From Octopus vulgaris (lineage: Eukaryota): a DNA stretch of 64,000 bases. A program made the position numbers and the translations under genes. Each line of letters opens with the position of its first letter. The first letter of the stretch is position 1. The DNA is taken from the NCBI GenBank assembly GCA_951406725.2, contig OX597814.1, forward strand, positions 131,006,001-131,070,000, read 5' to 3'. Of this stretch, positions 24,871-54,636 are shown piece by piece. The notes under the pieces are model-generated. The model was given only the letters and a program-made list of their open reading frames with translations. It was not told where the DNA came from and did no database searches.

Positions 24871-24918
<48 letters not shown>

Positions 24919-24968
24919 CAAAAGATTGTACAGCAGCTAACCTGGCTCCATCAAACTCAAACTCGCAG

Positions 24969-26000
24969 ATGGAACTATCCACAATACACAAGACCGCCAC
25001 AGCAAATAGACCCAAGGTGGACACCGCCGGCAACAGCATACACCTCACCTCGATACTCCTACTGAACATCAGAGGACTGCTAACACTCAGTAATAGGACA
25101 AAAATCCCGTTCTTGAGAGACTTTGTTTCATGCAATCAAGCCTTATGCATAGCACTTACGGAAACACACCTGAAACCGGACATAGCAGATGTGGAATTAC
25201 ACATACCACAGTATGTTGTACTACGGACAGACAGAAAAGAAAAGAGTCATGGAGGAGTTGCTATGTACATCCGTGAGGACCTCACACCCCAGGTCCTTTT
25301 GTCATACTCAAACTCGGTGTGTGACACACTAATTGTACATGTAAGGCAACTTGGTGTAGTTGTGTGTGCTACATATCGCCCTCCAGATGCCCCAAGCCAT
25401 GTAGGCAAGTTTGAAGACTGCCTTATAAAAATAGAAGTTTTAGTCACATTAGAACAACACATAAGTGTACTTCTTATGGGAGACTTCAATCTACCCAATG
25501 TCAGATGGCCCGAGGGCCTTTCTCTCCCAGGAATGACTCGATGTGAACGAGGACAGGCGAGGTCCTTCCTGAACCTCATCAACACCCTGTACATGAAGCA
25601 AGTAATACTCCAACCAACCAGGACAGGTAACATACTGGATCTCTGCTTCACAAATAATATGGATCTCATCCATAATGTGAAAGTGACACCGACACTAATC
25701 TCGGATCACAACATGGTAGAGCTGACCATGTACGAGCCAAAGAAAAGCATGGACATGCAGCCTACAAGAAACTCTCAGAATCTTTCCAGCTTGAACTTCC
25801 ATAAGGCAAACTGGAAACAAATTGAGAAAGAGATCCTCAAACAAAACTGGCCTGAATGTCTCTCCTCGCCAGACATCGACATGAAACTTCAACAATTCAT
25901 GTCTGTAATGCAAGCAATATGCTACAAATGTGTCCCGGAGAGAAAGGCCACTGTACACAAGAACAAAATCCCCAGAGAGAGGAAAATTCTAATGAGATAG
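24969..26000 (+). pseudogene. LINE ORF2 APE endonuclease portion (premature stop at 26000)
   Basis: 343-aa ORF with the full APE motif set. Confidence 0.9.
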
Positions 26001-26059
26001 CGTACAAAAGTTTCAAATCGCCTAAACAAACAAATTGAAAGCAGTGAAAGAGCTTCCTT

Positions 26060-27534
26060 GCAACTGGCAAACTTCCAAGAAAACTGAAGGAAGGTAAAAT
26101 ATGCCCTATTCATAAAGGAGGTAGCAGAGCGGAGGCCAAGAACTACAGACCTATCTCTCTGACCTCACACATCAGCAAGGTCATGGAACGAATAGTCAGA
26201 AGGAAACTAATCACCTTCCTTGAAGAAAATGACTTGCTGCCTGACACCCAACATGGTTTCCGACCAGGAAGAAGCTGCTTAATTCTCAGCTCCTACAACA
26301 CTATGACTGGGTGCTGAAACGACTGCTCAACCACTCAAATGTGGAAGTGATATATATATCTCGACTTTGCAAAGGCCTTTGATAAAGTCGATCATGGAAT
26401 GATATGCCACAAACTGCGTGATCTTGGCATAGTTGGAAAATTGGGAGAATGGCTTCATGACTTTCTGAAGGATAGAAGTCAGGTGGTAGTAGCCAATGGG
26501 TCCACTTCCATTAACGCGCAAATAGTGCGCGGTGTTCCGCAGGGCACTGTTTTGGGACCACTACTGTTCATAATGGCCCTCTCAGACATGCCCTCAACCA
26601 CGCAGAGAGCCACGATCACAAGTTATGCAGATGATACAAAAGTTTCACAGGTAATACAGAACCCTGAAGACATTAAGCACCTGCAATGTGAGCTGGACAA
26701 AATATACAAGTGGGCTGAAAAGAATAGCATGCAGTTCAATGCTGAAAAGTTTCAAGCTTTATGCTATCAGCATGCAAAACTAAATGCAATACCCAATGAA
26801 TACACTGGACCTGGAGGGATTGCAATCCCAGAGGCACAATCAGTGCGTGACCTGGGTATTTACATGAGTGATGACGCAACCTTTCATGTACATGTTGCTA
26901 AATTGGCAATGAAATGTAGGTGGCTGGCCGGATGGATTCTTAAAACCTTTAGAACAAGAGACTAAGAAACCATGATGGTCCTCTGGAGGCACTTGTCCTA
27001 AGCCACTTTGACTATTGCTCTCAGCTATGGTCACCATCCAGTGTTAAGTTGATCACAGAACTTAAGGCGATCCAACGAAGCTACACGAAGAAGATAGCCT
27101 CTGTGCAGCATATAAGCTACTGAGAAAGACTCAAGAGATTAAGACTCTATTCCTTAGAGCGTAGGCGAGAAAGATTTGCCATAATATACATCTGGAAGAT
27201 CCTAGAAGGACTTGTCCCAAACTTTGGCATCGAGAGTTACACAAATGCCAGAACTGGGCGCCACTGCGTGGTGCCAAGGACTCCAAATTTGCCATCAAGA
27301 TGTAGGACAAGATACTGTGATAGCCTGGGCTTCAGAGGCCCACAGCTCTTCAATATCCTCCCGAAGAACCTGAGGGACCTGCATGGGGTGGATGCAGATG
27401 TCTTTAAAGTAGGACTGGATCTCTTCCTGTCAGGTGTCCCAGATGAACCAACTTCACGGCAGGAGGTGCAGATGAGGGCAGCTGCATCGAACTCTCTCGT
27501 GCACCAAATGGCAGTTGCTAAAATGCATTCGTGA
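26060..27534 (+). pseudogene. LINE ORF2 reverse transcriptase and C-terminus, frameshifted
   Basis: ORFs 26399-26965 and 27268-27534 plus intervening broken frames. Confidence 0.9.
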
Positions 27535-28486: not shown

Positions 28487-28794
28487 ACAAACAACATGCT
28501 GCCTTCGCTTCAGATTAGAAGCTACTAAGGTGCCAGGAAGAAAGACTTGTTACAGATTTTGCTTATCACTGTTTTATGGGGTCAGTTTTAATTGATTTCT
28601 GTCAACTCCCTCAGCCCTACCCCAACAGACACTGCTCCTTGTTCTCTCGGCCTTAGATATACAAAGATTTGATAAAACTAGTCTATAAATTAAAACTAAC
28701 CCCATAAAGCAGTGATAAGCAAACTCTATAACAAGTCTTTCTTCCTAATACCTTAGTAGCTTCTAAGCTGAAGCGAAGCCAGCATGTTCTTTGT
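28487..28794. mobile_element. MITE/foldback element with about 110-bp imperfect TIRs
   Basis: ACAAACAACATGCTG..TTAGAAGCTACTAAGGT / ACCTTAGTAGCTTCTAA..CAGCATGTTCTTTGT. Confidence 0.85.
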
Positions 28795-33152: not shown

Positions 33153-33210
33153 GCCATGATACATCGGTAGCCACTACACACATTTTTTCTCTCCTTGTTT
33201 TTCTGTGTCC

Positions 33211-33246
33211 CTTTCTGTGGAAGAGCGTAGGATCGAAATGTAAAAG
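33211..33246 (+). ncRNA. Degenerate minimal hammerhead-like motif (same family as 45948)
   Basis: cttt CTGTGGA A gagc gtag gatc GAAAT GTA aaag. Confidence 0.5.
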
Positions 33247-33294
33247 ACTTTTTCAATTCCGCTATGGTCTTACCACTAAGAAACTTTCTTGAGA

Positions 33295-43945: not shown

Positions 43946-44731
43946 TTGGATATTTTCGGTTTGAACAGCAGTTTTTAACATAATTTCTAGGTAACTAAAA
44001 AATTTTAAACTTCGTATACTGGTAGAATGTGTTTATAAAACATCTTTTTCTCTTGGCTTTCTTGAGAAAATTCTGTAGTTTGTAACATATTTGTTGTTTA
44101 ATTTCTTGCATTTCGGCAATTTCAACCAATCACTTTTAACTATTGAGTTAAAAAGCATTCTGTGCCGTATGAATATGTCCCTCGTTTAAGAAACACATTG
44201 GGTTTATTTACATTTGTGAAGAAAAAAAGATGCCCTTCCCCCACCCCTAACCCTAACTAACTCTAAATCTAAAATAGACACCGCTAAAAAAACTGCCGTT
44301 TTTTCTAGCGGTGTCATATGAAATTGTCACCCATAATTATGACCCTAGAATCGATCTATTGCATTTCAATCTATTTTCGATTTAGGGTTAGTTAGGGTTA
44401 GGGTTAGGGTTAGGATTAGAGTTAGGGTTAGGGGTGGGGGAAGGGTATCTTTTTTCTTCACAAATGTAAATAAACCCAATGTGTTTCTTAAACGAGGGAC
44501 ATATTCATACGGCACAGAATGTTTTCACCTCAATAGACGGTCATTGATTGGTTGAAATTGCCGAAATGCAAGAAATTAAAGACCAAATATGTTACAAACT
44601 ATAGAATTTTCTCAATAAAGCCAAAAGAAAATGATGTTTTATAAACACATTCTACCAGTATACGAAGTCTAAACTTTTTTAGTTACCTAGAAATTATGTT
44701 AAAAACTGCCGTTCAAACCGAAAAGGTCCCC
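43946..44731. mobile_element. Foldback/MITE-like element with about 330-bp inverted arms ending internally in telomeric repeats
   Basis: TTTTCGGTTTGAACAGCAGTTTTTAACATAATTTCTAGG.. / ..CCTAGAAATTATGTTAAAAACTGCCGTTCAAACCGAAAA; CCCTAA repeats at about 44245-44270, TTAGGG repeats at about 44382-44432. Confidence 0.92.
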
Positions 44732-45687: not shown

Positions 45688-45947
45688 GCATAAAAATTAA
45701 AGTAAAAACAAAAGCAACAGAAATCGAAAAGACGTACACAATAAATGTGTTGGATTGGCGCTCGGTTTTAGATGGAAAAAAAGAGGTGGATGTAATTTTT
45801 CGAGTATAGCTCTACGTCAGAATAAGGAGAGCGAAGGGGAAAAAAGTAAAAAAAAAACACATGTGCGGTTACATGGCTGAAGCGATATATTTTTTTTCTC
45901 TCCTTTTTTTTTCTTTCCTTGTTTCTCTCCTTGTTTTTTCTGTGTCC

Positions 45948-45983
45948 CTTTCTGTAGAAGAGCGTAGGCTCGAAACGTAAAAG
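45948..45983 (+). ncRNA. Minimal type-I hammerhead-like motif (A6U variant)
   Basis: cttt CTGTAGA A gagc gtag gctc GAAAC GTA aaag: stem I cttt/aaag, stem II gagc/gctc, GUA triplet. Confidence 0.65.
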
Positions 45984-46352
45984 ACTTTTTTCTATTCCTG
46001 AGCGTTATACTAATACATCTGTTTGTTTTGTACACCACCTGTCTTCGTCTTTTGTCTTTTTCGTAAACTCTCCCTATATATTTATACATATATATATATA
46101 TATATATAATTAATTAAGGGTAGAAATTGATATTTATCAATTAAGACCAGTGGTCTAGCATATTAAAAAAGAATCCGAAGATTAAAATATTTATATATAC
46201 CAATTAAGGACTGAACACGAAAAGTGGACAGTCAACATGCTAGATATAGACGTCAAATCGTCATTCACCACAAAAGATTATGTTCTCAGATCAAACTCAA
46301 CACAAAACCATAGCAATAAACAAGTGAAAAATATACGAAATAAAATAATTAC

Positions 46353-46417
46353 CCATGTACTAACTTAGTTTCAGCTGTTATTTTCCGCAAGGAAAACTGC
46401 AGCCATCATCAGCATGG
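46353..46417 (-). ncRNA. Type-I hammerhead ribozyme, intact core
   Basis: Minus strand ccatg CTGATGA T ggctg cag ttttcc ttgc ggaaaa taa cagct GAAAC taagtta GTA catgg: stem I ccatg/catgg, stem II ggctg/cagct extended by ttttcc/ggaaaa, stem III ACTAA/TTAGT. Confidence 0.85.
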
Positions 46418-46889
46418 TCCGTTATAAATGTAATTTGCTGGACTAGATGCAAACACGATACCGAAATATCGCGTGCATGGAGTTCAGCCTATTACATTTG
46501 AATATATCTTTCAAATGCCTTTACTTTGGCGCGTTGAAACCCGAGAAAACTAGCCTGCAGCTAATAATTAGCAGCAGTTAATTTATCGGTTAGAGAACAT
46601 ATTTATTTATATAAAATTAATTAAGGGTAGAAATTGAGTCTATATCTAGCATGTTGACTGTCCACTTTTATATATATATATATATATATACAAAATAAGA
46701 AAATGGAGAAACACATCTTAATCAATGATCAACTACCAGATAATACCCAATCACATAATTTATGAAACTACTACATATGAACATTAAAGTCAAACATTAT
46801 ATTATATATTATATATTATGGGTATGTACCCACTATTGTATGGATGTACCCCCTCTGATTTTCATATTTAATTTAGTTTGTTCTTCATA

Positions 46890-47016
46890 ATCTCTGAAGA
46901 GGCCTTGAGATATTTTTGTTAGTGTCTCATTTATAACTACATATTAACCTATCACACATGACTAATATGAGCATAATGAGGCACCCATATCTGCATGGCT
47001 GAAACAGCTGTAAGAT
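46890..47016 (+). ncRNA. Type-I hammerhead ribozyme, intact core, long stem-II insertion
   Basis: atct CTGAAGA ggcc [about 90 nt including hairpin tgagatat/gtgtctca] ggct GAAAC AGCT GTA agat; palindromic stem III ACAGCTGT. Confidence 0.78.
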
Positions 47017-47396
47017 GTAGTTTATATTTATATTTGTATTTATTATATTCACTTATACATACTGTACTTATTGTATCATATTACTCTTTCATGTACATTA
47101 TTTTGTTCTATATTATTATGTTTGACCTTAATGTTCATATGTAGTGGTTTAATAGATTATGTGATTGGGTATTATCTGGTAGTTGATCATTGATTAAGAT
47201 GTGTTTCTCCATTTTCTTATTTTGTATTATTAATTTGTGGTAAAACATTTTACCTTTGCCCATATAATACAGTAAATGAATTAACTGTATCGCAGTTCTT
47301 AACATTTATGTATTAACTTTGTTGGGTGCTTCACTAGCAGTATATTATATATGTGTTATCCCATGGAGGGTTGCACTTACAACCCCTATCTCAATT

Positions 47397-47493
<97 letters not shown>

Positions 47494-47510: not shown

Positions 47511-47627
47511 TAAATGCATCAGTAACACCCCCACCACACCGCCCTGACCCTAGCCACATTCAGATGGCTGATCCCTCTTATGTTATAGAACAGTTACTGT
47601 TTATATCTCGCCCAGAAATTTATTATT

Positions 47628-47679
<52 letters not shown>

Positions 47680-47947
47680 AATAATAAATTTCTGGGCAGA
47701 TATAAACAGTAACTGCTTATAACATAAGAGGATCAGCCATCTGAATGTGGCTAGGTCAGGGCGGTGGTGGTGTTACTGATGCATTAGCCCCAGGCGAACA
47801 TCGACGTCACCAGAAGAGCTGAAGGACACCGAGATGGTGTCAGCTCTTCTGGTGACGTCGATGTTCGCCTGTAAATGCATCAGTAACACCCCCACCACCC
47901 CGCCCTGACCCTAGCCACATTCAGATGGCTGATCCCTCTTATGTTAT
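47511..47947. repeat. Nested direct/inverted repeat complex around (TA)n
   Basis: Unit forward 47511-47630, inverted 47676-47786, palindrome 47791-47870, forward again 47872-47947. Confidence 0.92.
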
Positions 47948-47969
47948 ATATATATATATATATATATAT

Positions 47970-52299: not shown

Positions 52300-53200
52300 A
52301 GAAGTGAAATGTGTCTGGCGCTGTTGTCGTGGGTAATTGTCGTGGGTTAGCAAAAACGACAGTGTAGCATGCTGGAGTGATGCGCGATAGTACTACATTT
52401 CTTTTAACAAGCGACGCAACCCCTTAACCCAAGCACGGATGCCCTTGTTAATGTTTGTCCACAGAAAACGAGTTGATATCATCTTTTGTGTGGGACGAAT
52501 GCCAGGGTGTCACAGGCAGTGAAGGACAGTGAAAATACGTCGTCGGTATTGTTCAGGGACATAAGGGCGTTCGTGACCAGTGGAGGTATCGCACCATATC
52601 TGACAGGTAGAAGATAATGGGAACAGATGAAACTTGAGGGACGACGAATTCCGGTAATTATTAAGCTCTTCGTCGTTTTTCTGATCTGCCGTGATCAGGT
52701 AAAGATTGATAGTCTATGGAGTGTGTAAGGCGCTAAGATGGACGCGTGAAAGCGCGTCTGCTGCTGTGTTGTCTGAGCCTTTGATATGCCGAATATCTGT
52801 GGAATATTGGGCGATGAAGTCGAGGTGACGGACTTCTCTGGGAGAATAGCAGTCAGATCTTTTTCTAGCGGTTTATAGTCCGTGTAGATGCTGAAAACGG
52901 ACCCATCTAACATATGGCGGAAGTGCTTAACGGACAGATACGCAACCAGTAGCTCACGTCCAAAAGTACTGTATTTAGCCTCCGCAGGCTGAAGACGTTT
53001 GGTAAAAAAAGGATAATGGTTGCCAAACGCCAGCCACCAACTGCTGAAGGACACTACCAACTCCAGACATGGACGCATCAACCAGTGAAGTGAGGTAAAC
53101 CAGCGCCATGGCCCTAACTAGCATATCCTTTAGTTTATTGAAGGAGACCAGCTCTGCGTCACCTAAAGTTGTAACCTGTCTCTTCGTTTTGTTGCGCAGA
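52300..53200 (-). mobile_element. Ty3/Gypsy pol remnant (RNase H, integrase Zn-binding region; integrase core apparently deleted)
   Basis: VDAS..GVGSVLQQ..WQPLSFF; KRLQPAEAKYSTFGRELL.AYLSVKHFRHML.G..F.IYTD.KPL; RHLDFIAQYSTDIRHIKGSDNTAADALSR; LH.L.HPGIRPT. Confidence 0.93.
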
Positions 53201-53206
53201 ACATCT

Positions 53207-53288
53207 GGACATATGGTGTAATGGTTAAGAGCGCGGGCTACTAACCCCAAGATTCCGAGTTCGATTCCAGGCAGTGACCTGAATAATG

Positions 53289-53322
<34 letters not shown>

Positions 53323-53523
53323 TGATAATGATAATAATAACATCGAAAAATACCTTAGGAATGAGAACCCAGATTCAAAATTTCCCCATGACACTTGATG
53401 AAGGCTGGAGGGTGTATCAGCTGAAACGTTATGTTAACAACAAACAAGATGAGGACAAATATCCGTCAAATGTAAATAATGTAAATAATGTACATAATTC
53501 CTCATCTCATAAATATAGAACTG
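53207..53523 (+). mobile_element. tRNA-headed SINE-like element with internal (TAA)n and a minimal hammerhead motif (53391-53434)
   Basis: TGGTGTAATGGTTAAG A box, GAGTTCGATTCC B box; acac TTGATGA A ggctg gagggtgtat cagct GAAAC GTT atgt. Confidence 0.75.
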
Positions 53524-54300: not shown

Positions 54301-54636
54301 TTTGAGTAAATGCTATGCACAATAGCGAATGTAGAAACTGCTGTTGTAATATAAGAATGAATCGTTATTTTGGGTATAAGAATGGCAGATTGGGTATTCA
54401 TAGCTGATGATGTGTAACAAGGCAGAAACATATGCGTCCTATGATCCAATGACGTCATTCACAGCCCAATATGTTTTCATGCATGTTATCGAGGAGAAGT
54501 TTCTTTCGAGACTATATTCGCAGCGGAGAATACTCGTTGTGTTAAATATGACTACACAGAAGTATTTCAATCAATGCTCCTAAGCACATACACGCACACA
54601 TACCCACACACATACGACACGAGCGCGCATATCTGC

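Follow-up and report, generated by a model that had tools for sequence, protein, structure and literature searches.

A 507-nucleotide retrozyme-like unit with a Penelope-type hammerhead and an apparent Penelope-type insertion footprint in Octopus vulgaris DNA

A 64,000-nt stretch of Octopus vulgaris DNA (the window, which is the whole stretch analysed) contains, on its minus strand, a complete type I hammerhead motif within a short non-coding element. This element is probably a young, dispersed monomer of an abundant 507-nt non-autonomous non-LTR retrozyme with a hammerhead of the Penelope type, inserted in trans by a PLE reverse transcriptase/endonuclease. The family to which it belongs is organised head-to-tail, and its unit is multi-copy under four organism labels and without detectable coding capacity. 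By features of its sequence, the element joins a known class, the animal non-LTR retrozymes, and is not an autonomous PLE. Coordinates are collected in Table 1.

Table 1. Features of the element and its flanks (window coordinates)
Feature	Position	Strand	Basis
One full 507-nt non-coding unit of the head-to-tail/circular repeat family	46108..46614	-	Junction contigs in X2, X11, X15; fold; Pfam
Hammerhead of Penelope-type architecture, cut between 46358 and 46357	46353..46417	-	Descriptor search and published PLE consensus
23-bp wrap-around: final 23 nt of the unit before it, where the direct copy is truncated at its 5' end	46615..46637	-	Identical to 46108-46130; junction contigs
3' end of the direct copy (first direct repeat of the sequence-only reading)	46108..46130	-	Sequence comparison
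32-bp inverted copy of 46220-46251, 3' end outward into (TA)n	46638..46669	+	Exact extent; depth collapse past 46637
33-nt stretch between the stub end (46220) and the family terminus 46187; candidate Penelope 'tail'	46187..46219	-	(AT)n loose ends; inference
Left (TA)n-rich flank, target microsatellite	46075..46107	.	Sequence
Right (TA)n flank, followed directly by a second Penelope-type insert	46670..46690	.	Sequence

The motif comprises CUGAUGA, GAAA, UH and three helices, and ends in helix I. Read 5' to 3' on the minus strand, helix I (5 bp, 46417-46413 paired with 46357-46353) leads into the CUGAUGA core (46412-46406) and an additional U at 46405. The base of helix II is a further 5 bp (46404-46400 with 46377-46373), the first of which is a G.U pair; its outer part consists of a 2x2 internal loop capped by a 7-bp hairpin whose own loop has 4 nt. 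GAAA occupies 46372-46369 and a near-palindrome of 11 nt occupies 46369-46359, with A (46358) as H17 immediately before the predicted cleavage site. An earlier sequence-only reading of this DNA had described an intact core with a 5-bp stem I and an extended stem II, cut on the minus strand at precisely this place, and all of this is confirmed. A strict descriptor (stems of at least 5/5/5) has a single match in the window and none in any of 150 block-wise dinucleotide shuffles, so that the hammerhead is beyond chance; a middle descriptor matches twice, with one match in 1 of the 150 shuffles, and a loose one three times against a shuffle mean of 0.31. The motif is genuine and correctly located. 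Rfam hammerhead models give no match at the gathering threshold in the whole window, and the four Rfam matches obtained at E up to 10 for 45900-47400 include no hammerhead. The locus motif agrees with the consensus of metazoan PLE hammerheads (supplement of Cervera and de la Pena 2014, PMC4209133) save for U at position 11.1, which makes a G.U pair of the consensus G10.1-C11.1. The same reading had also proposed an ACUAA/UUAGU stem III. The palindrome is there, but it does not close within one molecule: five pairs are impossible (the loop would be 1 nt), and the monomer is left with a stem III of at most 4 bp and a 3-nt loop, with predicted pair probabilities of 0.01-0.02.

The 507-nt unit has a GC content of 33%. 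A direct repeat of exactly 23 bp (46108-46130 and 46615-46637) recurs at an offset of 507, and the locus holds 1.05 units (one unit and 23 nt). The direct repeat had been noted before and stands; the inverted copy, given earlier as 31 bp, is exactly 32 bp (46220-46251 against 46638-46669). The true 3' end of the direct copy may lie as far out as ~46078, within TA-rich sequence. No ORF of at least 100 codons is present in the element, Pfam places 0 of the 6 sense-strand frame fragments of the unit above its cut-off, and neither the ORF list nor Pfam reveals in the element the reverse transcriptase and GIY-YIG endonuclease ORF of an autonomous PLE. (A GIY-YIG remnant 5' of the hammerhead, suspected by eye, is unsupported; Pfam gave only DUF5438 at E 0.026, below the cut-off.) A tRNA scan yielded 0 genes. 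Inspection by eye also picks out a splice-donor-like site directly 3' of helix I and an acceptor-like site ~140 nt downstream (46352 to ~46212, minus strand); introns are possible in Penelope pLTRs.

Evidence for the 507-nt period comes from public sequencing runs. The stretch is present in 20 of 24 listed runs, from 8 studies and 4 organism labels, and contigs were fitted to the element in four of those 20: X1 (1685 contigs), X2 (11), X11 (879) and X15 (32). (X1 may be the window's own source; X2 is guessed to be RNA, and none of the 20 is recorded as RNA.) A junction of the end of the unit with its start, at a period of ~507 bp, is seen in three of these four runs, X2, X11 and X15; X1 has none among the rows listed. 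In X2 it takes the form of a 415-nt contig (record 25) that matches the locus with 0 differences from 46175 to 46122 and onward from 46628 to 46268, in exact 507-bp register, and reaches more than 31 letters beyond the 23-bp repeat on either side. Two joints in X11 lead from 46636/46637 to 46146/46167 through linker letters that have diverged, and in X15 four contigs have a loose end past 46637 that resembles 46131 onward. A false join from this locus is unlikely, since the index uses words of 31 letters, longer than the shared 23-bp repeat. These contigs imply a 507-nt unit, head-to-tail or circular, whose overlap is what appears here as the direct repeat. The Penelope insertion signature of the sequence-only reading survives in its stub and partial tandem, but not as a plain Penelope end.

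Summed contig depth, which is not copy number, is similar on the two sides of the junction in X1 (174,822 and 179,195), X11 (79,202 and 86,586) and X15 (207 and 181), and differs about twofold in X2 (23 and 45). Fitted contigs that continue into unlike sequence make up a share of 0 in X1 and X11, 0.05 in X2 and 0.08 in X15, as judged among the loose ends listed, with 195 more beyond these; rarer continuations into an ORF could exist. Depth is greatest near the 3' termini (46195-46299). Past 46637 it drops to 7,653 in X1, 4,054 in X11, 20 in X15 and 0 in X2 (4-10% in three runs), and the inverted stub is therefore not a family feature. A true dimer array would follow from the junction alone: no contig in the four runs spans two whole hammerheads, two complete consecutive hammerhead units are absent at the locus, and contigs elsewhere are too short to display them. 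The family is in part homogeneous, with 761 of the 1685 X1 contigs at least 99% alike. Some contigs of X1 and X11 carry a local duplication over the 5' half of the hammerhead (46390-46424, with joints from 46423/46424 to 46390). Two other accounts of the repeats were rejected, a target-site duplication as the source of the 23-bp repeat (which other copies read straight through) and fixed terminal inverted repeats (on the evidence of the family contigs). Searches with two DNA patterns in metagenome, viral and prokaryote collections returned 0 matches in five of five scans, as expected for an animal repeat.

The ends of the copies resemble those left by Penelope insertion. Other members of the family have (AT)n loose ends before 46187 (10 contigs in X11 and 1 each in X2 and X15), and others again stop against (AT)n at 46599 (2 contigs in X15, 1 in X2), which is the tandem equivalent of the left end of the locus copy. 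The stub end at 46220, found in the locus copy only, lies 33 bp from 46187; that interval is a candidate Penelope 'tail', defined by one stub and the family terminus. The locus copy has (TA)n on both flanks, and at the stub junction there is a near-homology of 4 nt that includes a slip of one base. One 8-nt AT-rich motif begins at both family termini, 46187 and 46599, and also at 46130 and 46078, which would make priming by pairing with TA ends possible. The inverted stub is probably a product of the insertion event. PLE insertions are described with an inverted 5' copy, a tail of 30-40 bp and microsatellite targets (Craig et al. 2021, PMC8557442; Arkhipova et al. 2013, PMC3846280), and the anole PLE protein in vitro cuts and extends both strands; its two internal start sites delimit the tail (PMC11167929). 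A stub that is variable and rare in the family, (TA)n targets and a tail of ~33 bp together have the appearance, in sequence terms, of a Penelope-type insertion footprint on a retrozyme.

The hammerhead is carried by minus-strand RNA only, and folding calculations suggest that a single copy is mostly inactive. In the best predicted fold of the monomer the core is paired with the 3' half of helix III (-21.0 kcal/mol, against -19.0 for the active fold); a gap of 2 kcal/mol is smaller than the method can resolve, and the model takes no account of tertiary contacts or Mg2+. The predicted probability of the active fold is 0.002-0.011 in all five sequence contexts and 0.002-0.11 over five allele sets; the common central allele brings both folds to -19.0 kcal/mol, with 11% predicted to be active. 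The sequence-only reading had envisaged a live ribozyme cutting any transcript that runs through it. This is overstated, given the restriction to minus-strand RNA and an active form predicted at ~1%; the more stable alternative fold that the same reading had named as a ground for giving up its proposal is found, in silico, for the monomer. Judged from these models, a single copy is probably a weak cutter of read-through RNA. No host gene has been identified over the locus. The dimer is the predicted active form: two motifs cofold as a double hammerhead with two active cores, at a gain of 5.4-8.3 kcal/mol over two monomers in five of five allele sets. (In a two-unit tandem the double hammerhead, at -298.0 kcal/mol, is no better than two blocked monomers, at -300.0.) These energy differences, too, do not exceed the uncertainty of the calculation, which leaves out tertiary contacts. 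Published hammerheads span a comparable range. Those of Penelope type did not cleave as single motifs and cleaved weakly as dimers (PMC4209133); that of the anole PLE depended on a protein of the element, and RNA ends at its predicted point of cleavage were not detected (PMC11167929); 1 of 9 frog retrozyme dimers cleaved (Li, Clavereau, Pollet 2026, bioRxiv 10.64898/2026.07.22.740005); and coral and mussel retrozyme monomers cleave efficiently (Cervera and de la Pena 2020, PMC7229834).

As a circle, the 507-nt unit is predicted to fold at -140.7 kcal/mol with 66% of its bases paired (z -7.3; 0 of 60 shuffles as stable), and predicted long-range pairs join the two flanks of the hammerhead. The opposite strand has an equal z. 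Control tiles (60 low-repeat tiles outside the unit, from 126 window tiles) have a median z of -0.8, and three of the 60, namely two DNA foldbacks and one TA-rich tract, fall below -7.3, so that fold strength by itself is no proof of selection on RNA.

Forty listed variant rows were compared by hand with the pair list and 5 were set aside (4 at weak pairs, 1 at the palindrome centre). Twelve of the remaining 35 are at unpaired sites, which is no enrichment over the 34% of sites that are unpaired; the other 23 affect bases paired in helices, and pairing is preserved in 13 of these and lost in 10, assuming an unaltered partner (whose own change may lie beyond the rows listed). Transitions at Watson-Crick pairs lead to G.U on the hammerhead strand in 9 of 10 cases, where a DNA hairpin would be expected to give half (one-sided p ~0.01), and this bias hints at selection on RNA. 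All 9 transversions at pairs break pairing. At A-U pairs, A-to-G changes on the RNA strand number 7 and U-to-C changes 1. Among the variant rows listed, none hits an invariant core base of the hammerhead; its variation sits at the centre of the helix III palindrome (changed or deleted) and at 11.1 (to C). The G10.1-C11.1 pair that the locus copy lacks is restored by a variant at 46373 that accounts for 28% of depth in X1, 21% in X11 and 26% in X15 (0 in X2). In one diverged X2 contig (depth 4.7; X11 has similar ones) both of the two altered inner pairs of helix II are compensated, and the core is altered solely at the free position 7, as read by eye from a 30-letter loose end.

These properties can be accommodated in a scheme in which tandem copies elsewhere would be transcribed on the hammerhead strand, two hammerheads would pair through their palindromic helices III, and each would cut, freeing a 507-nt monomer that ligation might then close into a circle. 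Where a monomer or circle is alone, pairing with the 3' half of helix III would keep the catalytic core mostly off. By analogy with the in-vitro work on the anole element PAc, a PLE protein would cut both strands of a (TA)n target and use AU-rich sites inside the RNA to prime reverse transcription. One cDNA of 530 nt would run around a multimer or circle; another, of 32 nt, would begin 33 nt upstream of the common start, and head-to-head joining of the two would give the direct-plus-inverted structure. With its single hammerhead, the locus copy could not release a unit alone. A search for an autonomous partner element gave none.

A more ambitious combination of these elements is, in its entirety, doubtful: an octopod-wide, viroid-sized (507-nt), rod-like circular RNA that is copied in trans by a Penelope protein, unlocked by dimerisation, primed at (TA)n and edited from A to I. 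The hammerhead would then be locked by design, the helix III palindrome mimicking and pairing with the catalytic core; reverse transcription would begin at repeated AU-rich sites that pair with (TA)n target ends; and the excess of A-to-G changes would be the genomic trace of A-to-I edits made in the RNA intermediate. If this were true, the genomic copies would be proof, at the level of the footprint, of PLE-mobilised animal retrozymes, and the unit would be a compact substrate for assays of PLE retrotransposition.

How the family arose can be read in other ways. The element might be what an autonomous PLE leaves behind, either a truncated pLTR stump or a rare by-product of internal deletion, with a 507-bp junction that is minor and a unit that does not propagate itself. 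It is consistent with this that the hammerhead fits the PLE consensus and not the canonical retrozyme type, and that depth peaks near the 3' termini as it does for 5'-truncated PLEs; one frame 5' of the hammerhead also weakly resembles, by eye, the C-terminus of a GIY-YIG domain. What makes a stump unlikely is that the junction occurs under three organism labels and in diverged forms as well, that its depth is matched in three of four runs while nearly no contigs leave into unlike sequence, that Pfam has no family above its cut-off in six of six frame fragments, and that predicted long-range pairs bind the two sides of the hammerhead together. The head-to-tail order and the homogeneity of the family (the 415-nt identity in X2; close agreement among X1 contigs) would also be those of a DNA-level satellite that arose once out of a PLE pLTR and now multiplies through unequal crossover or rolling-circle DNA, with the RNA intermediate abandoned and the hammerhead a passenger. 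The birth of satellites out of pLTRs has been discussed (bioRxiv 10.64898/2026.07.22.740005), but for this family it is very unlikely: the locus copy is dispersed and ends in (TA)n, transitions at Watson-Crick pairs favour G.U on the hammerhead strand, and the compensated changes in helix II suggest selection at the level of RNA. The agreement of the stub with its template at 32 of 32 positions, in a dispersed copy within (TA)n, indicates recent insertion by a reverse transcriptase. Least credible is a DNA transposon derivative with fixed sub-terminal inverted repeats and an incidental hammerhead (MITE, Helentron/DINE-type, or DIRS-type split repeats). Short direct and inverted repeats and small hairpins near one end, traits of such families, would suit it. 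It is largely refuted by the near-absence of the inverted piece from other copies, by the direct repeat being a wrap-around and by a hammerhead beyond chance.

A separate question, whatever the origin of the element, is whether the locus copy, as a monomer, could be an efficient ribozyme and cut read-through transcripts of the host in vivo. The core is intact, the active fold is just 2 kcal/mol (within error) above the blocked one and ties with it when the common central allele is present, and coral and mussel retrozyme monomers cleave well (PMC7229834). Efficient cleavage is nevertheless doubtful, with an active fold of ~1% in five of five contexts (0.2-1.1%) and a G.U pair at 10.1-11.1; PLE-type single motifs are inactive (PMC4209133) or protein-assisted (PMC11167929), and no host gene was found over the locus. 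It is unlikely that the single copy regulates host transcripts to any important degree.

The surroundings of the element are rich in microsatellites and other repeats (GC of the window is 28-43% in 2-kb bins). A second, unrelated insert of Penelope type (46688-47399, plus strand) adjoins the 507-nt element, to which it bears no likeness; it has an intact hammerhead core (46890-47016) with a 100-nt helix II and loop and a palindromic helix III. An inverted copy of 119 bp (95% alike) stands at the 5' end of this insert, whose best predicted fold is also inactive. Two copies of a U-rich, Penelope-like end (45919-45998 and 33183-33260, plus strand; 91% alike over 80 bp) contain a decayed minimal hammerhead, as read by eye. 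At 47511-47948 lies the fourth insert of this cluster, with 77-bp direct copies 361 bp apart, inverted copies, a perfect 32-bp hairpin (47791-47871) and a palindrome around (TA)n; this insert resembles a palindromic Penelope-type stub. The four Penelope-type inserts, within ~2 kb and with (TA)n between them, form an insertion hot spot; clustering of PLE-type inserts has been described (PMC6765202). Two further segments are hammerhead-like: 54398-54445 (plus strand), with an intact core, a 6-bp helix I and a weak helix II, belongs to the loose class of which 0.31 are expected by chance per window, and ~48551-48465 (minus strand), noted by eye, has a long loop II and an altered cleavage triplet. 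The window also contains a long foldback at ~44000-44680 with TTAGGG-like repeats inside both arms (133 and 95 bp, 89-94% complementary), a MITE-like foldback at 28487-28794 (110-bp arms, 90% complementary), the RNase H remnant of an LTR element at 52695-53433 (minus strand; PF17917) and a broken LINE at 24873-27534 (plus strand; PF14529, PF03372, PF00078), whose protein has 4 matches at E <=1e-50, the sole named one being from Octopus sinensis at 59% identity. The host is probably an octopod, with which SINE-like repeats of the window agree.

Animal non-LTR retrozymes (PMC7229834; bioRxiv 10.64898/2026.07.22.740005) share with the octopus element a small non-coding head-to-tail unit with GC below 45% and a type I hammerhead, a predicted self-paired circle, many monomeric offspring and a proposed dependence on PLEs. 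At 507 nt the octopus unit exceeds the invertebrate retrozyme circles of 170-400 nt but is within the 51-972 bp range of families given by Li et al. Its hammerhead is of PLE type, whereas those of animal retrozymes are canonical, and its core is predicted to be self-blocking, a property reported to be absent from most animal circles (PMC7229834). It has an inverted stub and a candidate tail, neither of which was found mentioned for animal retrozymes in the available parts of these two sources; no report of either footprint in retrozymes was found in the literature searched. For cephalopod hammerheads or retrozymes no paper was found in a search mostly outside the subscription literature (Repbase/Dfam or supplements may contain the family), and the main text of a paper on O. 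vulgaris repeats (PMC13282606) has 0 mentions of hammerhead or ribozyme.

The pLTR hammerheads of endonuclease-bearing PLEs (PMC4209133; PAc, PMC11167929) have the same CUGANGA with an extra nucleotide and a helix I of 4-5 bp, and they also share a long helix II starting with G, a palindromic helix III, an AU-rich 3' flank and a dimer-type design (PMC4209133). The octopus unit differs in having no ORF behind the hammerhead, an 11-nt palindrome that is longer than in minimal variants, and, in the locus copy, U in place of the consensus C at 11.1 (PMC4209133). PLE insertions with an inverted pLTR and tail (PMC3846280; PMC8557442) likewise show a partial tandem, a 5'-truncated copy in inverted orientation at the 5' end, termini offset by ~30-40 bp, targets in microsatellites and head-to-tail non-autonomous units; such head-to-tail non-autonomous PLEs are already known from MRC1, a non-autonomous element of the Chlamys group (PMC8557442). 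Naiad and most Chlamys elements are without hammerheads (PMC3846280; PMC8557442), unlike the octopus unit, whose partial tandem is of merely 23 bp and which, again unlike PLE insertions, has a further terminus ~80-95 bp beyond the tail.

Animal retrozymes are derived from PLE pLTRs according to Li, Clavereau and Pollet (bioRxiv 10.64898/2026.07.22.740005), and the enzymes that move them have been argued for from co-occurrence and pLTR likeness (PMC7229834 and the same preprint). A retrozyme-like unit with a footprint peculiar to Penelope is more direct evidence on the mobilising enzymes. The predicted block of the hammerhead would also be, for the 507-nt family, a simple answer to the problem of circle self-opening left by PMC7229834.
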